Of a DNA stretch of 46,475 nt, positions 25,293 to 35,705 are shown in pieces. Every line of letters begins with the position of its first letter. Within the stretch, counting starts at the first letter, position 1. Made by a program: the position numbers and the translations under genes. The notes beneath the pieces are model-generated. The model was not told where the DNA came from. It made no database searches and saw only the letters and a list, made by a program, of their open reading frames with translations. This DNA comes from a bacterium (GTDB lineage Bacteria; Bdellovibrionota_B; Oligoflexia; Oligoflexales; RGVZ01): the NCBI GenBank assembly GCA_037134655.1, contig JBAXLR010000003.1:1-46475 (forward strand), given 5' to 3'.

Positions 25293-25556
25293 TCAGCTGA
25301 CTTTCAAGCTTAGTTTTTCTTTGTTTATCTGGTCTTGTAGGGCTAGCTTCACCAGCCATTCGGCAGGGAGGTCTAGTTTTTTGGAAAATTCCTTTGCCAA
25401 TTTAATACTGACCGCAAAACGGTCGTGCTCAATGTCGCACAAACGCTGCTTAGATATGCCCAGAAACTTGGCAAACTCTACCTGAGACAGTTCTTCCCCT
25501 AGTCGGTGTAGGCGCAGAAATTCGCCCAGGGAGTTGGCTTTTCGTTTAGTACTCAT
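25293..25556 (-). CDS. XRE-family antitoxin
   Basis: LSQVEFAKFLGISKQRLCDIEHDRFAVSIKLAKEFSKKL. 11-nt overlap with the upstream RelE-like gene. Confidence 0.75.
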   Translation of the reverse strand: MSTKRKANSLGEFLRLHRLGEELSQVEFAKFLGISKQRLCDIEHDRFAVSIKLAKEFSKKLDLPAEWLVKLALQDQINKEKLSLKVS

Positions 25557-25803
25557 GTTTGTTGACCTCTAAAATCTCTATGACTTCATAGCGGTTGGGA
25601 TCTAGCTCACGGTAGATTATCCGGTAGCCCTTCGACAACCTGACGGAACGCTGCCCCCGACGACGGCCGTGCAATGGCTCATCGTGAATTCCATTATATT
25701 TGCGGGCCTCTCGAAGTACAATCGTCTTGAGCAAATCAACCCAGTAGTCATATTTCCGCGCTATGTGAGCCGGGCAGTGATCTAAAAACATTACACACAT
25801 CAT
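25546..25803 (-). CDS. RelE/ParE-superfamily toxin
   Basis: 85 aa. GQRSVRLSKGYRIIYRELDPNRYEVIEILEVNKHEY is typical of RelE-fold toxins; toxin-first operon. Confidence 0.7.
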   Translation of the reverse strand: MMCVMFLDHCPAHIARKYDYWVDLLKTIVLREARKYNGIHDEPLHGRRRGQRSVRLSKGYRIIYRELDPNRYEVIEILEVNKHEY

Positions 25804-26328: not shown

Positions 26329-26949
26329 ATGAATTCGCTCCAAATTGAAACATTTGCAGTTAAATTGCAAAGACATCCACAACCATCCGAGATTCACTCG
26401 TGTTTTTGCGAATTTGTCGGCAAGTCAGACGGTAAATCTTCTGAATCGCTGGGATGTAGCGGTATTGCTCGGGACGGCGCAATACTAGTGAGACCCGCAA
26501 ATGAGCGGCAAATCACTTCAAGCGATAAAATGCAAAGTCGGTCAATCCAGATTGATTTATCCAAGCCAATTTCAATATCATTGCGGCTATGTCTCGGGGC
26601 AAATGGTGGCGGCAAGAAACGTCGAGAACGCGACGGACAACGCACAGGACTTTCTTGGAAGCAGCGGACAGCCTCTGGGCAAACGACTATCGATAAAATA
26701 CTCGAAAAACTCGAGGTGTCGGCTGGAATCAAGCCGTCTTCTGACGATAGCGCAATCGTGCGCAATCTTACACAGGAGCATGCTGGCATTCGCATTGATA
26801 GAAACGCGGGCACTTTCTTTCTCAATGATTGCCACGAGGTCATCGGCTCGTTTGAAATTATTAATATAGAAAAATTTACGGCGGCAATTCAAAGAGGCAT
26901 AGGAAAGCGTCGTTCCTATGGATTTGGGCTAATCGAGGTTATCGTATGA
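26329..26949 (+). CDS. cas6e: Cas6e-like (CasE/Cse3-type) crRNA endoribonuclease
   Basis: C-terminus ...EVIGSFEIINIEKFTAAIQRGIGKRRSYGFGLIEVIV resembles E. coli CasE ...FEGVLTINDAPALIDLVQQGIGPAKSMGCGLLSLAPL (from memory), including the Gly-rich loop. ISISLRLCLGANGGG resembles LYFRLRANP. AAGGAAG RBS. Stop overlaps the cas3 start (ATGA). Confidence 0.75.
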   Translation: MNSLQIETFAVKLQRHPQPSEIHSCFCEFVGKSDGKSSESLGCSGIARDGAILVRPANERQITSSDKMQSRSIQIDLSKPISISLRLCLGANGGGKKRRERDGQRTGLSWKQRTASGQTTIDKILEKLEVSAGIKPSSDDSAIVRNLTQEHAGIRIDRNAGTFFLNDCHEVIGSFEIINIEKFTAAIQRGIGKRRSYGFGLIEVIV

Positions 26950-29900
26950 CTGAGTTGTTTGCAAAATCTAAAGACGCTGTCAAATATCAACAGCCCCTTG
27001 ACCTCCACTTACGTGGAGTTGGCCTGACTGCGGAAAGACTTGCGCGTGATCTAAGCGGTCAAGCTCCCATGAGTAACTTCCTACGAGATGCCGCTTTTAC
27101 AGCAAAAATTGCCGGTTTCCTACACGACATTGGAAAGCTTGATTCGGGATTTCAGAGAGCACTTAATCGCGGCACTAATTCAGATGCAGACGAACAAGAA
27201 GATTCGCTACCATCGGACTATTGGCATCATGAAATCGTTTCTACCGCCCTGCTTTCGACCAAGGCACTAGCAGAATTGCTGGCCACTCTGATTCGGGAAG
27301 AGTATGGCGAAAACTTAGACTCTCGCCGCAAGAGCTCTCTTACAAGGGCAATTAAGTTTGGGGTGCTGTGGCATCACGGCCGGCGATCACGTTCAAAAAA
27401 ATGGGATTTAATATCCGCGCCTATGAGCACGGAGGCTGAGTTTTTTAACGCATCAGATATCGTTCGTGAAATCTCAGCGGATTCAAAGTATAGCGTTCAT
27501 GACAGACTGCAGACGCTTCTAAAAAGAACACTCAATAAGGACGTCTTGATTGCTGCTGCTGACCTTGAGATTTGCAAAAATACAACTGAAATTTTTCCAA
27601 GATTTCGGCAGTACTCATTGTTATCATCAAATCCCTACTTGAATTCAATGATTGCTGAGTTAGATCCCGAGTTTGATCGAATACCAAATGACAAATTTAC
27701 AGACAAATATGTCGGTAAAGTTAAGGCCATTCTCGCTAGAAATGTTAATGTCCTACGCAAAGCTGCACAATCGTGTGGCGATTCGGAGTACTCAAATACA
27801 ATAGCGCAGCTACTGCATCAACCGAGTAGGAACGGCATTTACTTAAATGAAGAGTATGACCAGGATCTTTATCTTAATGCTCTGTGTGATCTAGTCAGAT
27901 GCTTAGTGATCCAAGCAGACTGGGAGGTCTCCCAGATGGGAAAACAGGATCTAGAGCATTTAGCAAATTCCGAACCAGCCAAAATAAGATCAAATATTAA
28001 CCAACACAATTGGCTGGAACTAATTCCGTCTGACGATAGCGCTAAACTCGAAAAAGCTAAGCTGGATTCATACCGTTACCGTGTAATGGAAGAGTCTGCA
28101 AAATTAGTTTATGACTTGGGCAAACGAATCGTGATAAACCGATCCTGCGCTGGGGCCGGTAAGACACTTTGGGCACTCTCGTATTTTCAAAACCAAAAGT
28201 CGATATCCAAAATTTATTGGGTCTGCCCGCGAATACCCATTGTTCGAGGAGTATACGACGAGCTAGTTGAAGAAGTTAAAAGGCAAAGCCTATCGGGCAC
28301 TGTTGCCGTGACTCAATTATCTTCAAGCGAGATTGTTTGTAGCAATGAAAAGATTGAGCCGCTGGAAGCACAGATCATAGTAACGACATTTGACTTCATC
28401 TTATCTACCTATGTACGTCACGGGAAGGCAAATCAGCTTTCGTCCATTTATGCTGGCAGCATCATTTTTGATGAATATCACGAAATCGCAAGTGAGCCTA
28501 TGATACAGTCGTTTGCTTCTGAACTCCTTTACGCCCGAAGTCAAGTGCCTGATTCACGCACGGTGCTGCTTAGTGCGACGCCGTGCTTTCCGTTGCTAGC
28601 GTCTATGGGACTTTGCACACGTATTTCGCACGCGGATGGCAATTCTAGCTTTGAAATGAATGAGGAAGCGGGCGTTTATGCAATTCCGTTACTGGGTGCA
28701 TTTCCAGCCGTTTTTTCTGAACAAAATCTGAAAAGTAACCCGGTGATTGCGAAACAGCATCACCTTGAGCAGACAACTATGAGCGATGAGAAACATTTTT
28801 ACGAACTGGCGAAAAATCTAAGTGATCAAGGAACTCAATCGCTGTTAGCGTCATCCAGTTCGATATCTAAAACCGTAAGATTATACAAGATGTCACAAAA
28901 TGAAGGACGCGAGGACCAAATTTTTCACGGGCAGTACTATCGTGAATTGATGCCTGGAGCTAACAAATCCCATTGGACTCTCAATTATGAAGCTGTGATG
29001 GCAGGGTGGGGCAAGGCCTCCCTCAATGCCGACGGCAATTCAAGAAAAGGACATGTATGGTCCGCCCAAATGCTAAAAGCCTCATTGAATGTGTCTACGC
29101 CGCGCACTATTCATCTTACGTTAGGACCTGATTCCGACATTCAACTCTACGGTCGAAATGATCGCTTCGCCAGATCACAAGCAACTAAGAAATTTCCGAA
29201 AATTCTGATGGTTAATTCAAACGATGCGTCACATCGTTGGGCTCTGGATGCCGCCTTCGACAAGAAGATAGCTGATCGATGGTTTGAATTTATAAGGGAA
29301 AAACTCCAACATATAGGTACATCGAAAATCGTTTCCAATTCACAACTGTACGCCTGGTATGATGAATTTGCACTTAAAGAGTGGGATCCACAATCCGATC
29401 AGATTTCCTGGCGCGATTTTGCAAATTACAACTTGATAAGCGGTCTACAGAAGATGAATGCCCAGTGGCTTGTTCCACGTAACGAACCCCCATGGAGTCA
29501 CACTCACAAAACAACGCCAAATGGGCCTCGGTATGCCGGTCGAAACCTGCGTGGGGAGGGGTTTTGGGCGCGTTTAGCAGTCATCACGGATCATGAGGTA
29601 TTGGTAGACTGCCCGACTATTGAAATGACCGCGCGACCAATGGATCGACACTTCCTTGAAAGGGTGACACCTAACAGGAAGGTAAAAGAGGCAAGATGGA
29701 GAGATAAACCTTTCTTTTACTCATTACCAGGGAGTTCAGAAGATTTTAAACCTTGGTGCGAGAGCGTGAAGAGCGAGGCGCGCCGACGCTTGAGAGAATC
29801 CGGTTATTCAACAGAGAACGTCTTGAAAGAATTTAGTCGCAAAATATTGGTGTATCATTGTCATTCGACGTCTGATCCGGGTCTTGGAATGATCAGTTTG

Positions 29901-30005
29901 GCAACGCTAACTGAAGACGTGCCGTTCTGGGAAGAAAATATTTCACACGCATTTGTGCCAGCAGAAATCATGGATATATTTAAATCAATCGCAAAAATGA
30001 AATGA
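26946..30005 (+). CDS. cas3: Cas3 HD nuclease / SF2 helicase (1019 aa)
   Basis: HD-domain residues FLHDIGK, WHHE and LWHHG in the first ~150 aa. Walker A CAGAGKT, DExH box IIFDEYHE, motif III LLSATP, possible motif VI LYGRNDRF. Confidence 0.9.
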   Translation: MTELFAKSKDAVKYQQPLDLHLRGVGLTAERLARDLSGQAPMSNFLRDAAFTAKIAGFLHDIGKLDSGFQRALNRGTNSDADEQEDSLPSDYWHHEIVSTALLSTKALAELLATLIREEYGENLDSRRKSSLTRAIKFGVLWHHGRRSRSKKWDLISAPMSTEAEFFNASDIVREISADSKYSVHDRLQTLLKRTLNKDVLIAAADLEICKNTTEIFPRFRQYSLLSSNPYLNSMIAELDPEFDRIPNDKFTDKYVGKVKAILARNVNVLRKAAQSCGDSEYSNTIAQLLHQPSRNGIYLNEEYDQDLYLNALCDLVRCLVIQADWEVSQMGKQDLEHLANSEPAKIRSNINQHNWLELIPSDDSAKLEKAKLDSYRYRVMEESAKLVYDLGKRIVINRSCAGAGKTLWALSYFQNQKSISKIYWVCPRIPIVRGVYDELVEEVKRQSLSGTVAVTQLSSSEIVCSNEKIEPLEAQIIVTTFDFILSTYVRHGKANQLSSIYAGSIIFDEYHEIASEPMIQSFASELLYARSQVPDSRTVLLSATPCFPLLASMGLCTRISHADGNSSFEMNEEAGVYAIPLLGAFPAVFSEQNLKSNPVIAKQHHLEQTTMSDEKHFYELAKNLSDQGTQSLLASSSSISKTVRLYKMSQNEGREDQIFHGQYYRELMPGANKSHWTLNYEAVMAGWGKASLNADGNSRKGHVWSAQMLKASLNVSTPRTIHLTLGPDSDIQLYGRNDRFARSQATKKFPKILMVNSNDASHRWALDAAFDKKIADRWFEFIREKLQHIGTSKIVSNSQLYAWYDEFALKEWDPQSDQISWRDFANYNLISGLQKMNAQWLVPRNEPPWSHTHKTTPNGPRYAGRNLRGEGFWARLAVITDHEVLVDCPTIEMTARPMDRHFLERVTPNRKVKEARWRDKPFFYSLPGSSEDFKPWCESVKSEARRRLRESGYSTENVLKEFSRKILVYHCHSTSDPGLGMISLATLTEDVPFWEENISHAFVPAEIMDIFKSIAKMK

Positions 30006-30017
30006 GAGGTTAAGTTA

Positions 30018-31199
30018 ATGATTACGAAAGAGAAAGCTGCCACGACGAGAGTTTGGTTTGAGTATACGCTAGATGGAGAAGGCGGACTTAACTACGGGGA
30101 ATCGGAAAAAATCACCTACTCAAAAGTCGATTCAAGCGGAAGAGAAAAAAAAGAAGATAAGACGATTAAGAGGCTCAAGAAAAATACATACAGGCATGGC
30201 GGGCAATTAGTTTCTGTGCCCAAAGTTTCGTCAAACTGCATTCGCCATGGGTTGTTTCAACGGGTAGAGAACTTTATTCTACGCGAAGGTGAATCAATGA
30301 CTAGTGATTCAAAAGATAAACTATTTTGGGCAAGGTTCGGAACGCTTAGCGGCCTAATGCGAGGATATATGAATGCCGCGCAAGGCGAAACCTACAAACG
30401 TTTCTCGGCCGTAGTGGCATCTTCAGCAACGGGCGAAGTTCATATTGATCAAGAAGGTAACACATTGGTGCCTGAGATTTCTGAAGAATTTTTCAGCTCC
30501 TCGTCACGTAAGGAGGCTACAAATGGTGCCGCATCGATTTTTAACGCCGAGACCGTTGGGCGGGTCCGGTATTTTGGAGATATTCATATTGATTTAGTGA
30601 CGCTTCAGTTTTTTCCAATTTCTCCCGGTGCTGAACGAAGCTGCGTACCACTCGGAAAAAGTGGAGATAAAAATGGATATGAAGAAATTGTTGCGCAGAT
30701 GAAAAATAGCATCAATACCGCTCTGAAAAGATATTTAACTCAGCCAAACGAGGAAACTGCAAACCACGGCATTGTGAGATTCCGGGGAAGCGTTCTGCCC
30801 GCAGAAGTTGGCGAATTCGGAGTGCTTTTGACTGATAAAGGTGTATCTGCAGCAGTTTGGGGTTTTCTTAAGGACTGTCTACTACCATTTCAGATTTTTC
30901 GAGGTGGTCGTGCAAGAGCTAACCTCGATTCCATGAAAATTTACGTCGAAGATGCAAATTTCGACCGTCAAGAGTTTATGGTCATAACAAAGGGCTTGTT
31001 GAGTAAAGATGCGCTAAATAAATTTAAAGATCGGCTATTCCAGGCAAAATTTGACAACTATGATCTTGTCGCCCAAGGGCAGGACATTACAGAATATTTT
31101 AAATCAATTGAAAGGAATAAAGAGGAAGCAGGAGGCGAAGACCGTAAAAAAGCGCCCTCGGCTAATGGGAAAGATAAAACCAAGAAACGTCAGAGATAA
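30018..31199 (+). CDS. cas7: Cas7-like backbone subunit candidate (393 aa)
   Basis: By eye: GGLNYGE, then HGGQLVSVPKVSSNCIRHGLFQ (compare E. coli CasC [20 protein letters not shown], from memory), FGTLSGLMRGYM (compare ALSGRMAT) and RVRYFGDIHIDLVTLQ (compare VFYRYANINLAQL). Position between cas3 and the cas5-like gene. Lys-rich C-terminal tail. Confidence 0.65.
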   Translation: MITKEKAATTRVWFEYTLDGEGGLNYGESEKITYSKVDSSGREKKEDKTIKRLKKNTYRHGGQLVSVPKVSSNCIRHGLFQRVENFILREGESMTSDSKDKLFWARFGTLSGLMRGYMNAAQGETYKRFSAVVASSATGEVHIDQEGNTLVPEISEEFFSSSSRKEATNGAASIFNAETVGRVRYFGDIHIDLVTLQFFPISPGAERSCVPLGKSGDKNGYEEIVAQMKNSINTALKRYLTQPNEETANHGIVRFRGSVLPAEVGEFGVLLTDKGVSAAVWGFLKDCLLPFQIFRGGRARANLDSMKIYVEDANFDRQEFMVITKGLLSKDALNKFKDRLFQAKFDNYDLVAQGQDITEYFKSIERNKEEAGGEDRKKAPSANGKDKTKKRQR

Positions 31200-31258
31200 A
31201 TCTTGATTTATTTTCATCCTCATTTTCTGCGGACACCAGGGTCGATTAGGTGAATTAT

Positions 31259-32197
31259 ATGAAGTTTCTTGCGCTTAGAATTGCAGCAGCTGAATTAGTA
31301 TTGAGGAATGTTGACTCAGGTCAAGAGGCTGATGTTTATAAGAAGTATTATAAGAATCGAGAAAAACCGGACGGACATCTTCAATCTGAATTGTTTAAAT
31401 TCAACAATAGACCGCAGGATCTCATTCGCACTCTTGACACTGTTGGATTCGTGTCCGTTAGTACATTATCGGGCTTTATTTTACGCCAGATCGCAGGTGG
31501 CCAGGTAACAACAAAGATGATGAAAGGATTCGCAGCCAATCATCCTCTTGCAAAATTGCTGGCGGAATGCGAAGAGCTTGCAAAAGCTGCTTTTTTTACT
31601 GACGAGTCATCTGAATTAAAATTAGGCGCTGAGCTTATTACCTACCCTATGCGCGAGGGACAGCCTGACAAATCTCCGTTACTTGAATGGCATCTTTTCA
31701 CCTCGCAAAATCAAGCAAAATTAGACTTTATATTTGCCTTGGCGGAGTTTGCCAAACATAAAAAATGCGGACCTCGAAAACTACCAGAGGACTTTCGATT
31801 GGAGACAACAAATGATCTAAGGCAACTCTATTCATGGTTAACCGAGGTTAATAAAGATAAAAAAATAGAATCCTTTTATGAAGATTTCCGAAAAACCAAT
31901 CAAGCTTGCGCAAGTAAAAGTTGGGGGTCTATTCTTTCGGGCGGAAAGTATTGGTCGCGCCGATATTCTGATAAAACATTCACTCGAAAATTGACTATAG
32001 GTAGGACTATTTTTATCCCACTTGATAGCGAAGCGAAAGAAAAATTGGCGTCCAAAGTCATGTCATCGTCTGTTTTGCCACAAATAGGAAGATGTGTTGT
32101 AAAGCTCCAGATAATGGAAAGAAGGTCCTTTCAGCAAAAGACCGCGATACCAAGTTCAAAAAATATTTTGGAAAAATTATGTGCCAAAAGAAGTTAA
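31259..32197 (+). CDS. cas5: Cas5-like subunit candidate with large helical insertion (312 aa from ATG 31259; track start GTG 31250)
   Basis: N-terminus MKFLALRIAAAELVLRN and TLSGFILRQIAGG resemble CasD SYLILRLAGPMQAWG / TRSGLLGLLGACLG. C-terminal LPQIGRCVVKL resembles TPYLGRRSCPL (from memory). Weak motif-level evidence plus gene position. Confidence 0.5.
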   Translation: MKFLALRIAAAELVLRNVDSGQEADVYKKYYKNREKPDGHLQSELFKFNNRPQDLIRTLDTVGFVSVSTLSGFILRQIAGGQVTTKMMKGFAANHPLAKLLAECEELAKAAFFTDESSELKLGAELITYPMREGQPDKSPLLEWHLFTSQNQAKLDFIFALAEFAKHKKCGPRKLPEDFRLETTNDLRQLYSWLTEVNKDKKIESFYEDFRKTNQACASKSWGSILSGGKYWSRRYSDKTFTRKLTIGRTIFIPLDSEAKEKLASKVMSSSVLPQIGRCVVKLQIMERRSFQQKTAIPSSKNILEKLCAKRS

Positions 32198-33060
32198 ATC
32201 TTCGCAAGCTAGAAGAACATCGCAAACTCATCTCGTATCGAATGAGAAATCCTATGGTTTACCTCGAACGAGCAATTTTAAAAAATAAAGGTGGCAATGT
32301 CATCGCATATACAGGGGAAGAGATCCGTAGCATTCCAGTTGCCAACGTGGCGGCCATTGTGTTGGGACCAGGCTGCAGCGTCACGACCGAGGCCGTGCGC
32401 AGAAGTGCGGCCCGAGGCTGTACACTTATATTTGCAGGCGGTGATGGGCTTTCGGTTTTCGCTCAATCGGCTGGGTTCAGGGATGCACGGCGAAGAATTG
32501 AGCAGGGAGCAATGCATCGCTCAAAAGTTAGGCGCCTTCGTCAGGCAAGGTTCTTGTTAACAGAACGAAATCGCATGATCGCTGAGGCTGGAGATATACC
32601 AAGAATAGACTCACTAAGCATTACTGAGGCGAAGTCCGTGAATGAGCTAATGCTACTTGAAGCAAGGTGGACTCGTCAAATTTGCTTCATATTGGCTCGA
32701 AAATATAATATTCCCCGCGAATACAATCTACGGTCACCGAGCTCGCCACTGATGTTGATCAATTCATTTTTATACGCGATGGCGACATCTGTCGTAGCGT
32801 CTTTGGGATTAGATCCCGGGTTAGGTTTCCTGCATGGCGCCTCTCGAGGTGGTGGCTTAGTCTTTGATATCGCCGATGTCTTCAAACCTTTGTTAGGATT
32901 CGAACTTACCTTTTATTGTATCGCAAATAGCATCACTTCGCCCACAAAAGTCAAGGCTGAGTTCTTGAGACAAGCGCGTCGCAAGAGGCTGCAAGAACGA
33001 ATGGTAAAACTATTACTAACTTTATTTGATGAGGAAGATCATGCTGCTCGCAATAAATAG
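32179..33060 (+). CDS. cas1: Cas1 integrase, I-E-like
   Basis: IPVANVAAIVLGPGCSVTTEAVRRSAARGCTLIFAGGDGLSVFA and GFLHGASRGGGLVFDIADVFKP are colinear with E. coli K-12 Cas1 IPVGSVACIMLEPGTRVSHAAVRLAAQVGTLLVWVGEAGVRVYA / GFVHTGKPLSFVYDIADIIKF (from memory). ATG 32179 overlaps the cas5-like 3-prime end by 19 nt. The track ORF starts at 32092. Confidence 0.9.
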   Translation: MCQKKLNLRKLEEHRKLISYRMRNPMVYLERAILKNKGGNVIAYTGEEIRSIPVANVAAIVLGPGCSVTTEAVRRSAARGCTLIFAGGDGLSVFAQSAGFRDARRRIEQGAMHRSKVRRLRQARFLLTERNRMIAEAGDIPRIDSLSITEAKSVNELMLLEARWTRQICFILARKYNIPREYNLRSPSSPLMLINSFLYAMATSVVASLGLDPGLGFLHGASRGGGLVFDIADVFKPLLGFELTFYCIANSITSPTKVKAEFLRQARRKRLQERMVKLLLTLFDEEDHAARNK

Positions 33061-33292
33061 AACAAAGCGCCCCCTACGCAGAATGATTTCTGCAATTTTG
33101 GGAAGGTACATGTGGACAGTTGCTCCGGGGGTTTATTGCTGCGACTCCAAGCATGTAGGTCAACTGATTTTAGATGAAATTTCAGAACAGAAGCAAAATC
33201 TGAACTGGGATGGTCCCGTTTTGGTATCCTTGGCGGAGACTGATTCTGGGGAAGAATCTGGACTTTTGGTTTGTGATCATAGCTGGTTATAA
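33041..33292 (+). CDS. cas2: Cas2, I-E-like
   Basis: MLLAINRTKRPLRRMISAILGRYMWTVAPGVYCCDSKHVGQLILDEI vs E. coli Cas2 [45 protein letters not shown] (from memory). Overlaps the cas1 stop. The track ORF starts at TTG 33026. Confidence 0.8.
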   Translation: MLLAINRTKRPLRRMISAILGRYMWTVAPGVYCCDSKHVGQLILDEISEQKQNLNWDGPVLVSLAETDSGEESGLLVCDHSWL

Positions 33293-33299
33293 AGTTCTT

Positions 33300-34714
33300 A
33301 TGTCGCCCGCGATCGCGGGCGGTTCGCAGTTTAGAGTAACATCGCCAAAACTTCCACCTTGAATGTCGCCCGCGATCGCGGGCGGTTCGCAGTGACTTCA
33401 TAGCCGCAACACTTGCAGCCTTTGTATGTCGCCCGCGATCGCGGGCGGTTCGCAGGAAAGCTGACCGGTATGTTGCCCAAGAGTTGTAATGTCGCCCGCG
33501 ATCGCGGGCGGTTCGCAGATAAAACCCTCTGGCGTCCCAGACCCGAAACTATGTCGCCCGCGATCGCGGGCGGTTCGCAGGTATGGATGACACGAAGGCT
33601 AAAGAAGCCCGCGATGTCGCCCGCGATCGCGGGCGGTTCGCAGAATGATGACGGTGATGGAAAGTCGGCAGGATATATGTCGCCCGCGATCGCGGGCGGT
33701 TCGCAGATGAGTAAAGTACCTTCACTTGCCGATGCTGGTATGTCGCCCGCGATCGCGGGCGGTTCGCAGTACACCATACAGCTGTCACCCGTCACATTTT
33801 GTATGTCGCCCGCGATCGCGGGCGGTTCGCAGAAAGAAAGGACTCTATGCTGCCCCCTACAGATTATGTCGCCCGCGATCGCGGGCGGTTCGCAGCATGA
33901 GCGCATACATGAGGCTCTTGGTGATTTCATGTCGCCCGCGATCGCGGGCGGTTCGCAGCTTAGGATGGCCGAACAATTTGGAACGGCTTTCATGTCGCCC
34001 GCGATCGCGGGCGGTTCGCAGAACTACTAACCTGCTCCCGAAGCTGATCTACAGATGTCGCCCGCGATCGCGGGCGGTTCGCAGATGACCTCCATATCCT
34101 CAGACGGGCAATCCCACATGTCGCCCGCGATCGCGGGCGGTTCGCAGTCAGCAAGAGTGCCGCTGATTTCAAATGTAGCTATGTCGCCCGCGATCGCGGG
34201 CGGTTCGCAGTAAAGATTACCGACACCACCCGCTGATACTTGTATGTCGCCCGCGATCGCGGGCGGTTCGCAGAAGGACTTGGTAGCTTTCCTAGAGGCA
34301 CCAGACATGTCGCCCGCGATCGCGGGCGGTTCGCAGTATAAAACTATAGAGCATGACAAGTATAGGGTGATGTCGCCCGCGATCGCGGGCGGTTCGCAGT
34401 CGCCAGTGTCGCCTTTGTCACCTTTAAGCCCTATGTCGCCCGCGATCGCGGGCGGTTCGCAGTTGCGTACCGGATTTGGACAGCCTTGTTACGCTATGTC
34501 GCCCGCGATCGCGGGCGGTTCGCAGATCAACGGCAAGCCCACCATGTCGGCAGAGATTATGTCGCCCGCGATCGCGGGCGGTTCGCAGAAGCCAAAGCTT
34601 AAGGGAGATAAGACTTGAATAATGTCGCCAGCGAGCGCGGGCAGTTCGCAGTCGATATAAACCCCAGCCGAGATTTCTACTTAGATGTCGCCAGCGAGCG
34701 CGGGCAATCACCGA
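33300..34714 (+). CRISPR. CRISPR array: 23 repeats (21 identical, 2 degenerate at the distal end), 22 unique spacers
   Basis: 30-nt repeat ATGTCGCCCGCGATCGCGGGCGGTTCGCAG. Repeat starts: 33300, 33363, 33426, 33489, 33551, 33614, 33677, 33740, 33803, 33866, 33929, 33992, 34055, 34118, 34181, 34244, 34307, 34370, 34433, 34496, 34559, 34622 (3 mismatches) and 34685 (3-prime end lost). Spacers are 33 nt (one of 32). The repeat is an 18-nt perfect palindrome CGCCCGCGATCGCGGGCG plus the 8-nt tail GTTCGCAG, which sets + strand orientation. Confidence 0.97.
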
Positions 34715-34805: not shown

Positions 34806-35705
34806 TCAAATCGGAAATATATCAGACAATTCTTTAATTATATTGTCCCTAAAAATCTCTCTTCGATGCCACCGAATGTATTCTAGTGACGGCTCACTTC
34901 CCGATTGATTGGGCAAGATGACGGCCTTGCCATGGTGTCGGTAAAAGACTTCTTCCATGGGGCCTGGACCATTGAGAGATTTTGAGACGAGGATAGAGCG
35001 TTCATCTGAGAGAGCAATGGCTCCTGAGTCGAAGGCTTTGTGGTGAATGGAGCACAGAGCTAGGCCATTGGTGTCGTGATCAGGTCCGTTGTAGGAGTGC
35101 CACTTGATGTGGGCAGCCTCAATGCCCATGGGCGCGTGTCCCAGGCGAGCGCCGTATTGGCAGACGGCACAACTATAGCGGTAGAGTTCAAGGATTCTTT
35201 TGGCGAACTTGGGATCTCGTTTTCGTTTGACGGCTGATTTGTACCATTCTGCTGACAGACCAAGACACTCGCGAATGTCTTCGTGGAGACTGGGCGGAAA
35301 GTAGTCGTCAAGAATCTGCTGGGACAACTCACTTAGAAGCTTTGGGTCAGATTTAAGGGCATCAAAGATTTCACTGGTAAAGCCTGCTTTGATATTGAGA
35401 TCAATAAGGTCTTTCGGCGACACGTCGCCTGACTTATTGGGATGAAGATCATCGGCTCTCGGAATGTCCCAGAGCTTTCCGCCCATGTCGCCTCGTAGCC
35501 GCCAGAAGGGATACTGGGGGTTTGGAGCAGAGTTTGAAAACCTCGTCAGAAGCTCTTTGAGATCTGACTCAAGTTCTTGGTAGGTAAGAAGCCTCGGCTC
35601 CCCCATCTGTAGTCTTGATAGCGCCAGAAGAATCAGTAGGGGTTTGTGAGGCGCGACCTGATCGCCACGTTTGAAGGTGTTAAGTTTTAGGTCGGAGAGG
35701 TTCAC
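34806..35705 (-). CDS. HNH nuclease with N-terminal DNA-modification-reader-like domain (type IV restriction-like; resembles SBD-HNH phosphorothioate-dependent enzymes)
   Basis: HNH core CAVCQYGARLG...IEAAHIKWHSYNGPDHDTNGLALCSIHHKAFDSGAI. The N-terminal KRGDQVAPHKPLLILLALSRLQMGEPRLLTYQELE...YPFWRLRGD matches my recollection of the sulfur-binding-domain family annotated as phosphorothioated-DNA-binding restriction endonuclease. Confidence 0.7.
   Translation of the reverse strand: MNLSDLKLNTFKRGDQVAPHKPLLILLALSRLQMGEPRLLTYQELESDLKELLTRFSNSAPNPQYPFWRLRGDMGGKLWDIPRADDLHPNKSGDVSPKDLIDLNIKAGFTSEIFDALKSDPKLLSELSQQILDDYFPPSLHEDIRECLGLSAEWYKSAVKRKRDPKFAKRILELYRYSCAVCQYGARLGHAPMGIEAAHIKWHSYNGPDHDTNGLALCSIHHKAFDSGAIALSDERSILVSKSLNGPGPMEEVFYRHHGKAVILPNQSGSEPSLEYIRWHRREIFRDNIIKELSDIFPI

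Follow-up and report, generated by a model that had tools for sequence, protein, structure and literature searches.

A Cas8- and Cas11-less type I CRISPR–Cas locus, a divergent relative of I-F2 with an orphan protein in the Cas5 slot

I-F2 systems and the composition of the locus

Among known type I systems, I-F2 (I-Fv) is the most compact; small Cascade–Cas3 genome-editing tools might be derived from it. Canonical I-F2, for which Shewanella putrefaciens CN-32 served as our reference (PDB 5O6U, 5O7H and 9G44; PMC4937334, PMC6546366, PMC12956352), works without Cas8 or Cas11 (PMC4937334). Segments of Cas5fv and Cas7fv stand in for the missing subunits (PMC6546366, PMC12956352), with Cas7 wrist loops and thumbs, rather than a tail at the C terminus, performing the job of the small subunit (PMC12956352).

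The window analysed here (46,475 nt of a bacterial contig) carries six cas genes on the forward strand in the order cas6–cas3–cas7–cas5-like–cas1–cas2, followed by a CRISPR array (Table 1). Ahead of cas1–cas2 the locus holds only cas6, cas3, cas7 and the cas5-like gene, with neither cas8 nor cas11. None of the six cas ORFs is disrupted in the window, and ORFs of the locus are intact in three to four independent assemblies, those for Cas3, Cas7 and the Cas5-like protein among them. The host genome assembly (303 contigs, 93.7% complete) contains a single Cas1 match. Neither the locus nor this genome gave a match to Cse2 or Cse1, the Cse1 Pfam search being of limited sensitivity as it also missed the E. 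coli control.

Table 1 Features of the cas locus (window coordinates)
Feature	Position	Strand	Basis
cas6, Cas6e-like (206 aa)	26329–26949	+	Pfam, PADLOC, BLASTP
cas3 (1019 aa), N-terminal HD domain, Cas3fv-related, no Cas2 fusion	26946–30005	+	PADLOC, HMM
cas7, distant Cas7fv homologue (393 aa)	30018–31199	+	NF040577, Foldseek, VIA
Cas7 residues 38–62, basic loop at Cas7fv wrist-loop position	30129–30203	+	alignment
Cas7 residues 321–345, ~21-aa insertion not in Cas7fv, predicted helix 330–342	30978–31052	+	alignment, AF2
Cas7 residues 364–393, lineage-specific Lys/Arg-rich C-terminal tail	31107–31196	+	composition, alignment
Cas5-like orphan ORF, 312 aa from ATG (315 aa from GTG at 31250)	31259–32197	+	position, size, layout
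Cas5-like residues 86–215, putative helical insertion	31514–31903	+	alpha-type hydrophobic periodicity
Cas5-like residues 216–312, basic C-terminal third, strand-helix-PxIGR-strand pattern	31904–32194	+	charge, motif by eye
cas1, closest to Cas1e	32092–33060	+	NCBIfam, PADLOC
cas2, stand-alone (88 aa)	33026–33292	+	alignment with E. coli Cas2
CRISPR array	33300–34714	+	30-nt repeats, 63-nt period, 33-nt spacers

Cas3 scores 179.7 bits against the PADLOC Cas3fv model (next model ~52), and a Cas3fv HMM built in this analysis matches residues 14–880 at 176 bits. The latter match begins at model position 116, past the Cas2 part, and the HD domain of Cas3 begins at residue 6; the Cas2–Cas3 fusion of I-F2 is thus not present, cas2 being a separate gene. 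The closest plasmid matches of Cas3 are canonical I-Fv loci.

The processing and adaptation genes have a different complexion. Cas6 matches Pfam PF08798 at 26.4 bits (cut-off 25) through a C-terminal G-rich motif only, PADLOC Cas6/Cas6e models at E about 1e-6 and E. coli CasE over the last 37 aa (BLASTP, E 0.005); TIGR01907 gives 17 bits versus a cut-off of 45.2, and a Cas6f (Csy4) HMM from 62 I-F2 loci does not match it. For Cas1, the Cas1e model TIGR03638 (117 bits, cut-off 215.6) outscores Cas1f (78 bits), and PADLOC Cas1e gives 119 bits. Cas2 matches no Pfam, NCBIfam or PADLOC family and gives a full-length alignment with E. coli Cas2 (29% identity, E 0.02). Every I-E family score of the locus lies below its NCBIfam cut-off. 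The array repeat, ATGT followed by a 7-bp GC stem, a GATC loop and the 8-nt tail GTTCGCAG, is I-E-like in layout; the terminal repeats are degenerate, and there are about 21 unique spacers. In the search for a PAM, the spacers matched nothing in the organism's own genome (self-targets), and phages and plasmids yielded no genuine protospacer.

Set beside I-F2, the locus shares the lack of Cas8 and Cas11, homologous Cas3 and Cas7, the order cas3–cas7–cas5 found in 80 canonical loci, a Cas5-slot protein far longer than Cas5e with its surplus mid-chain, and a basic wrist loop on Cas7. It differs in its unfused Cas3 and separate cas2, a Cas6e-like Cas6 rather than Csy4, a Cas1 nearest Cas1e, a 30-nt repeat of I-E-like layout (27–28 nt in I-F), the placement of cas6 upstream and cas1–cas2 downstream, the 21-aa insertion and 30-aa basic tail of Cas7, and a Cas5-like protein matching neither Cas5fv nor PF20158. 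Likeness to I-E, as represented by E. coli K-12 Cascade, is found in the best, though weak, matches of Cas1, Cas2 and Cas6, in the repeat (4 nt, 7-bp stem, tetraloop and 8-nt handle), the 33-nt spacers and the stand-alone HD-helicase Cas3; however, Cse1 and Cse2 are lacking, Cas7 and Cas3 are nearer I-F2, and the Cas5-like protein exceeds CasD by 88 aa and gives no usable alignment with it. Our third comparison set, a Cas8-less I-F2-like family on huge phages (loci L166–L210), has the unfused Cas3, a non-Csy4 Cas6 and the order cas3–cas7–X, where X (276–369 aa) occupies the Cas5 slot and is likewise unrecognisable as Cas5fv. Unlike the window, the phage loci mostly lack cas1/cas2 and their Cas3 is ~750 aa rather than 1019 aa; neither the X proteins nor the phage Cas6 show similarity to their window counterparts.

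We conclude that the locus is a very divergent, deep-branching relative of I-F2, the only sampled one of its kind, and is not a stripped I-E system. The earlier note on this DNA stated the I-F2 precedent correctly, and the missing large and small subunits that it reported are borne out by the locus and, within the sensitivity of the Cse1 search, by the genome. Its suggestion that the same solution may have evolved here, which would imply convergence from I-E, is not supported, Cas3 and Cas7 being homologues of I-F2 proteins. Given that homology, the Cas8/Cas11-less design is most simply inherited; it is probably common to I-F2 by descent and not evolved anew.

Cas7 backbone and its additions

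Cas7 matches NF040577 at 56.6 bits (E 2.5e-15; equivalog cut-off 200) and Acinetobacter Cas7fv at 24% identity (E 5e-9), with 22–26% identity to I-F2 Cas7 generally. Motifs SxNCIRHxLF, GLxRGY, KRxS, IDQxGN and GExGxLL are common to the window Cas7 and Cas7fv. An AF2 model (pLDDT 66.6) is closest to I-Fv Cas7 by both Foldseek (5o7h_E, E 7e-12; next family 4.5e-4) and VIA (Z 18.6, 18.5 and 17.1 to 5O7H, 5O6U and 9G44; next family 10.1; I-E Cas7 9–10). As the model was built on a Cas7fv alignment, this fold match and the sequence homology are not separate lines of evidence. The protein sits on a terminal branch of 4.6–5.8 substitutions per site versus ~1.4 across sampled I-F2, and is equally close to phage Cas7 and canonical Cas7fv (44 bits each). 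Trees place it firmly with neither group: a quick tree joined it to the phage clade with a support of 100, but the AU test slightly favours the constrained alternative (p 0.63). Scans of genomes and metagenomes yielded no intermediate above 30% identity among the 80 loci kept from each; searching viral contigs with the Cas7 alignment recovered one canonical locus, and no relative was found in phages by tblastn or in 131 genomes of the same phylum.

Three parts of the chain bear on the small-subunit question. The wrist region (residues 26–69) has a net charge of +6, against a median of +1 and a range of −1 to +3 in 71 Cas7fv, in a slightly shorter segment (44 aa, Cas7fv median 50); its loop has low pLDDT and is probably flexible. 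Near the C terminus, the 321–345 insertion contains the predicted helix 330–342 (AF2 pLDDT ~66–70). The 30-aa tail (11 K/R, 6 D/E, net +5; AF2 pLDDT ~43–53) lies past the final strand alignable with the Cas7fv C terminus, the structural alignment stopping at model residues 362–364, equivalent to Cas7fv 313–315. In all, 32 aa follow the terminal YF, whereas in the 71 Cas7fv the median is 3 and none has more than 12.

The Lys/Arg-rich tail was thus rightly noticed before, but the part once proposed for it, replacement of a subunit, is contradicted by its absence from 71 of 71 Cas7fv in equally minimal loci. It is likelier that the small-subunit surrogate is the wrist loop, conserved and unusually basic, rather than the tail. 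The same comparison lends something to a further reading, in which all the additional segments are no more than neutral or peripheral decoration: the tail would be a disordered appendage, serving perhaps solubility, non-specific nucleic-acid binding or contact with Cas3 or Cas1–Cas2, the excess of Cas5 would be ancestral to the Cas8-less clade, and nothing would be newly replaced beyond I-F2. The Shewanella system is active with a tail-less Cas7fv (PMC4937334), the window tail is modelled at low confidence, and Cas7.1 of I-F2 contacts the Cas3 HD domain through its C-terminal region (S298, E299 and E303), with hydrogen–deuterium exchange of the C-terminal tail unchanged upon DNA binding (PMC12956352). 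Set against this, a second assembly, with 8% of its Cas3 residues changed, has exactly this tail and this 321–345 insertion, each Cas7 copy of the backbone would gain about +5 of charge from the tail, and the shorter wrist region makes some compensation conceivable. On balance we regard a purely peripheral role for the extra segments as rather unlikely.

The thumb region of the window Cas7 is acidic (net −3), where I-F2 Cas7 thumbs are described as lysine-rich (PMC12956352); this counts against the mechanism proposed below.

The protein in the Cas5 slot

The ORF directly 3′ of cas7 occupies the slot of cas5fv in canonical I-F2 and of X in the phage family. Gene callers choose the ATG at 31259 as its start. 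Three assemblies carry an unbroken copy (95–98% identity), one of them with an in-frame deletion of 2 aa. Its length falls within that of Cas5fv in 80 I-F2 loci (301–438 aa, median 340), and its layout of ~85 + 130–155 + 72–97 aa places the middle part at the chain position of PF20158 in Cas5fv (residues 110–266 of 337, leaving 71 aa C-terminal). Residues 86–115 and 186–215 have hydrophobic moments of 1.06 and 1.23 at 100 degrees versus 0.6–0.7 at 170 degrees; residues 151–170 do not show a strong 100-degree moment. The C-terminal third carries net +14 over 97 aa, and by eye resembles both CasD FTVALWLTPH...LEKAVLKPRYTPYLGRR and the Cas5fv C terminus, a resemblance that is not statistically significant. 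From gene position, size and layout we infer that this ORF is the Cas5 of the system; its middle part may be a folded helical domain performing the job of Cas8.

No homology search connects the protein to a family. An exhaustive phmmer search of 1.84e9 representatives and a word-based search each returned only the query itself, tblastn found no match in phages, and Pfam, NCBIfam, PADLOC (to E 10) and the PDB gave none. PF20158, the helical part of Cas5fv, is without a match at E up to 10 in a protein scan and a six-frame genome scan, and the PADLOC Cas5fv model does not match the ORF; both models do match Acinetobacter Cas5fv (226 and 528 bits). A Cas5fv HMM gives 1.0 bit (not significant), hhalign against Cas5fv a probability of 0.2%, comparison with CasD an unalignable E of 2.3, and hhalign and HMM comparison with the phage X family nothing. 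Taken domain by domain, hhalign does no better than with shuffled sequences, 6, 20 and 3 of 25 of which scored as well. In a phmmer search over 1,478 ORFs of related loci, Cas5fv accounts for nine of the best 40 matches versus about four expected, but none exceeds 4 bits and the enrichment is not convincing. Structure prediction was similarly unproductive: AF2 from the single sequence is unusable (pLDDT 34.6), the Atlas model (pLDDT 0.35) renders its structural neighbours (TM <0.3) meaningless, and a complex prediction with the Cas7 alignment (ipSAE 0.01/0.00, Cas5-like fold uncertain) speaks neither for nor against binding. There is precedent for unrecognisable subunits: in their own description, neither Cas5fv nor Cas7fv bore an apparent resemblance to any known Cas family, and Cas5fv could not be modelled (PMC4937334).

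Several earlier observations on this protein can now be qualified. An excess of some 90 aa over CasD is correct (312–315 versus 224 aa in E. coli K-12). Amphipathic helices in the middle third fit residues 86–115 and 186–215 but not 151–170; RAMP-like motifs at both ends are visible on inspection beside CasD, Cas5fv and the phage proteins, yet score as shuffles do in hhalign; and the supposed likeness to the Cas5fv insertion holds for its position in the chain, not for homology to PF20158.

The lack of detectable homology to any Cas5 would also fit the ORF being something else, whether a novel analogue of the large subunit or an accessory defence protein of nuclease-like type, with the handle capped otherwise. 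Queried with the unaltered sequence, the ESM Atlas feature search scored 0.95 (179 of 256 features) to clusters sharing no common Pfam family, some auto-named 'Upx-like domain-containing'. We discarded the Upx-like identity: a 95%-identical variant reached only 0.82, and to unrelated clusters, PADLOC gave no match to E 10, and neither Upx nor another nuclease appeared among PDB sequence matches. The ORF lies exactly in the cas5 slot of I-F2 and the phage family, Cas5 is present in every known type I Cascade, and the locus offers no other candidate ORF. A non-Cas5 identity is therefore improbable in our estimation, and we retain the assignment as Cas5.

The middle region of the protein is not basic (net charge about −1 over residues 86–215), which is unexpected for a DNA-binding surface and counts against its proposed role.

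Proposed assembly and its implications

Cas7 is the backbone subunit, and the Cas5-like protein the probable 5′-handle cap, of a Cas8/Cas11-less type I Cascade, a deep-branching relative of that of I-F2, for which we propose the following mechanism as more likely than not. The Cas6e-like nuclease would cleave 63-nt repeat–spacer units, with about six copies of Cas7 covering the 33-nt spacer and the 312-aa Cas5-like protein capping the 8-nt handle. Between its first RRM helix and its C-terminal strand-helix-strand, the ~130-aa helical segment may fill the place of the large subunit as in Cas5fv, reading the PAM and wedging the duplex. The displaced strand would be held mainly by the basic wrist loop of Cas7, as in I-F2, and the stand-alone Cas3 would bind directly to Cas7 and Cas5. 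Helix 330–342 and the probably disordered tail of Cas7 would be lineage-specific extras and not the primary small-subunit surrogate; if they have a role, these C-terminal additions most likely give non-specific DNA affinity or aid strand transfer to Cas3.

Might the missing subunits come from elsewhere? Translation of Cas11 from an internal start is known from other type I subtypes, and a genome in 303 contigs, 93.7% complete, could conceal a cas8 or cas11 acting in trans; alternatively, the system could be a decaying remnant. We found no in-frame ATG with a good Shine–Dalgarno sequence in the 3′ part of cas7 or the helical part of cas5 (best 3/6), a weak test because true starts here score only 4/6. 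The genome has one Cas1 and no Cse1 or Cse2 match, the spacers are numerous and unique, all cas ORFs are intact, several of them across assemblies, and canonical I-F2 does without such subunits (PMC4937334). External supply or decay thus appears very improbable.

A bolder interpretation, to which we give little credence, would have the locus as the sole sampled member of another deep lineage, the third, among type I systems that lack Cas8 and Cas11, uniting an I-F2-type interference core with I-E-type adaptation and processing, its helical insert independent of the Cas5fv AH domain and its displaced strand held through the Cas7 tail. If true, large- and small-subunit functions were re-invented more than once in minimal Cascades.

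As a relative of I-F2, the locus is a self-contained six-gene system: it brings an adaptation module of its own, its Cas3 stands alone and its PAM-side subunit is entirely different. It could provide a new PAM specificity, and would illustrate the ease with which I-E and I-F exchange interference and adaptation modules by recombination. The occupants of the Cas5 slot in canonical I-F2, the phage family and the window are mutually unrecognisable while Cas7 and Cas3 remain recognisable, which suggests that no part of a Cas8-less Cascade evolves faster than its PAM reader, anti-CRISPR pressure being a possible cause.

The listed cas1 ORF shares 106 nt with the cas5-like gene and its Pfam match runs from residue 59, so the true cas1 start is probably further downstream.

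Layout and affinities of the locus

The type I CRISPR-Cas locus is compact, with no further plausible genes found within the operon; the ORF coordinates and peptides quoted in the earlier note are correct.

Features of the CRISPR-Cas locus and its flanks, in window coordinates
Feature	Position	Strand	Size and remarks
Toxin/HTH-antitoxin-like gene pair	25293-25803	-	small; upstream of the locus
CRISPR-Cas locus	26329-34714	+	compact, type I
cas6-like		+	206 aa; first gene listed in the locus
cas3	26946-30005	+	1019 aa
Cas7-like ORF	30018-31199	+	393 aa
Cas5-like ORF	31250/31259-32197	+	315/312 aa by start chosen
Overlap of longest cas1 ORF with cas5-like 3' end	32092-32197		106 nt
cas1, cas2	after Cas5-like ORF	+	separate genes
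CRISPR array	ends 34714	+	30-nt repeats, 33-nt spacers
Spacer 18	34400-34432
HNH-type gene	34806-35705		299 aa; downstream, convergent with the array

The interference genes contradict an earlier treatment of the locus as a stripped I-E system. Cas3 has Cas3fv, of the Cas8- and Cas11-less I-F2 (I-Fv) subtype, as its top model (179.7 bits versus 52 or fewer for any other), and among plasmids tblastn matches it only to canonical I-Fv loci, from Acinetobacter and Legionella, ordered cas1f, cas2-3, cas7fv, cas5fv, cas6f. Unlike I-F2 Cas3, the window protein is unfused and lacks the Cas2 domain, Cas2 being encoded separately. Cas7 matches the NCBIfam Cas7fv model (E 2.5e-15) and Acinetobacter Cas7fv (24% identity over residues 70-314, E 5e-9), and contains the motifs that are invariant among 71 Cas7fv from equally minimal I-F2 loci. 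An AF2 model built on a Cas7fv alignment (pLDDT 66.6, pTM 0.67) matches Cas7 chains of Shewanella putrefaciens I-Fv/I-F2 Cascade (Foldseek E 7e-12 versus 4.5e-4 for the next family; VIA Z 18.6, 18.5 and 17.1 versus 10.1), a fold match not independent of the sequence homology, since the alignment derives from Cas7fv.

The adaptation and processing genes appear to lean towards I-E: Cas1 scores 117 bits with Cas1e and 78 with Cas1f, Cas6 has a C-terminal motif of Cas6e type and no match to the Cas6f HMM, and the stand-alone Cas2 aligns weakly with E. coli Cas2. Judged by sequence, the locus unusually combines interference genes of I-F2 type with adaptation and processing genes of I-E type. Its grouping with systems devoid of Cas8 and Cas11 holds, given the relation to I-F2 and the lack of a detectable cas8 or cas11. 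The suggestion that the same solution evolved afresh is not supported; with Cas3 and Cas7 homologous to I-F2, the design would most simply reflect shared ancestry rather than fresh invention. The 93.7%-complete genome, which holds one Cas1, gave no match to the I-E subunits Cse1 and Cse2, the Cse1 search being of limited sensitivity because it missed its E. coli control. The 3' part of cas7 and the middle of cas5 contain no internal in-frame start preceded by a good ribosome-binding site, although this is a weak test.

The Pfam match of Cas1 begins only at residue 59 of the longest ORF, so the true start is probably further downstream. The flanking genes look like a defence-island setting. Many unrelated phages have tail-fibre genes whose collagen-like Gly-X-Y repeat DNA is matched by spacer 18 (best match 27/27 nt, Klebsiella phage vB_KaeM_KaOmega), and the spacer probably originates from such a gene; no full-length protospacer was found, so no PAM is readable. 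Comparison of the window with an 11,651-nt metagenome contig shows 82 differences in the 1019 residues of Cas3 (8%), many within 160-400, one in the 393 of Cas7 and six in the 312 of the Cas5-like protein; such unevenness is suggestive of recombination or of diversifying selection on Cas3.

Additions to Cas7

By structure-guided and by sequence alignment alike, the window Cas7 spans the whole of Cas7fv (model residues 5-364 on chain residues 2-315), a short strand at 361-363 aligning with the terminal YAxYF. Compared with Cas7fv, residues 321-345 contain an insertion of ~21 aa, in which a helix is predicted at 330-342, and the terminal YF is followed by a tail of 32 aa (median 3, maximum 12 among the 71 Cas7fv). 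The tail is Lys/Arg-rich, as had been noted (11 K/R and 6 D/E in residues 364-393), and is modelled at low confidence.

The proposal that this tail replaces the small subunit fares poorly by the earlier note's own test, as functional minimal systems among the 71 Cas7fv do without it; it is probably not such a replacement and would be a lineage-specific add-on. In I-F2, wrist loops (D34, K57) and lysine-rich thumbs retain the displaced strand; the C-terminal region of Cas7.1 contacts the HD domain of Cas3, and DNA binding has no effect on the C-terminal tail (PMC12956352). The window Cas7 retains the wrist region, which at net +6 is more basic than in all 71 Cas7fv (median +1, range -1 to +3); its thumb, in contrast to the lysine-rich I-F2 thumbs, is acidic (net -3), and its C-terminal region adds net +6. 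Given these charges and strand handling in I-F2, the conserved wrist loop is a likelier small-subunit surrogate than the tail.

The gene in the Cas5 slot

The Cas5-like gene is real; three assemblies carry its intact ORF at 95-98% identity, and one of these copies has an in-frame 2-aa deletion. At 312/315 aa it is, as claimed, ~90 aa (88-91) longer than E. coli K-12 CasD (224 aa). By sequence comparison it is truly an orphan: a phmmer search of 1.84 billion representatives matched only itself, and Pfam, NCBIfam, PADLOC and PDB sequences gave no match. A Cas5fv HMM from the 71 loci scores 1.0 bit and hhalign against Cas5fv gives a probability of 0.2%. In the 337-aa Acinetobacter Cas5fv, PF20158 (Cas5fv_helical) spans residues 110-266 at 226 bits; it does not match the window protein. 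Nor do the proteins that occupy this slot in a huge-phage family match Cas5fv or the window protein. Across the three lineages, then, the Cas5 slot is mutually unrecognisable, while Cas7 and Cas3 stay recognisable. Cas5fv and Cas7fv were themselves first described as bearing no apparent resemblance to known Cas families, and Cas5fv could not be modelled (PMC4937334).

The RAMP-like motifs described earlier are discernible by eye, in that the N-terminal strand KFLALRI, the first helix STLSGFILRQIAGG and the C-terminal strand-helix-PQIGR-strand resemble CasD, Cas5fv and the phage proteins; statistically they lack support, per-domain hhalign doing no better than shuffled sequence. Of the amphipathic helices read into the middle segments (residues 86-215, 312-aa numbering), 86-115 and 186-215 have clear alpha-type periodicity, whereas 151-170 is hydrophobic without it. 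Two models of the protein are of too low confidence to confirm them (single-sequence AF2, pLDDT 34.6; ESM Atlas model of the identical sequence, 0.35).

Position and layout support the Cas5 label. The gene directly follows cas7, as in every related locus; its length compares with 301-438 aa for Cas5fv and 276-369 aa for the phage family; and its three-part layout, in which 71-72 aa follow the middle part, is like that of Cas5fv. Further support comes from the very basic C-terminal third (97 aa, net +14; the middle is ~-1) and from the need for a 5'-handle cap, for which the locus offers no other candidate. A Upx-like protein is a low-probability rival: an ESM Atlas feature search with the exact sequence reached 0.95 to unnamed clusters, some auto-labelled 'Upx-like', but a 95%-identical variant reached only 0.82, to unrelated clusters, and neither PADLOC nor PDB sequence searches link the ORF to Upx. 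The excess lies where Cas5fv has its Cas8-replacing domain, in line with the earlier note, and we infer, as the key claim, that the middle region may do the job of Cas8.

By Cas5fv length, canonical I-F2 loci of genomes form two groups, one of ~331-355 aa and one of 381-438 aa, which cluster on the Cas7 tree (examples are loci L004, L010-L013, L018, L048, L053 and L082); in the long form of L004 the PF20158 match is partial, in two stretches.

Isolation and phage relatives

In public data the window's Cas7 and Cas5-like protein are represented only by variants of at least 95% identity, and no relative was found in any of 131 same-phylum genomes. When the Cas7 alignment was used for pattern scans, 80 loci were retained from 185,579 species genomes and another 80 from JGI metagenomes, none exceeding 30% identity; the genome loci that were inspected all have canonical I-F2 architecture. 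On the Cas7 tree the window's terminal branch is 4.6-5.8 substitutions per site, versus ~1.4 for the deepest sampled I-F2 split.

A Cas8-less family of huge phages shares the order of an unfused cas3 (~750 aa), a Cas7fv-like gene and an unrecognisable 276-369-aa gene (X), followed by a non-Csy4 cas6. The window Cas7 is equally near phage Cas7 and canonical Cas7fv (44 bits each); a quick tree places it on the phage side, but the AU test keeps the alternative, which has the higher likelihood (p 0.63). In our view the locus represents a third lineage within the Cas8-less, I-F2-like group. On one viral contig (L185:11493-12311) a cas1 with E 4e-18 to the window Cas1 adjoins the phage cas3-cas7-X-cas6 module, and on another (L204:4780-5712; E 3e-25) cas1 is accompanied only by an adjacent Cas3 fragment; adaptation genes are thus carried by at least some phage relatives.
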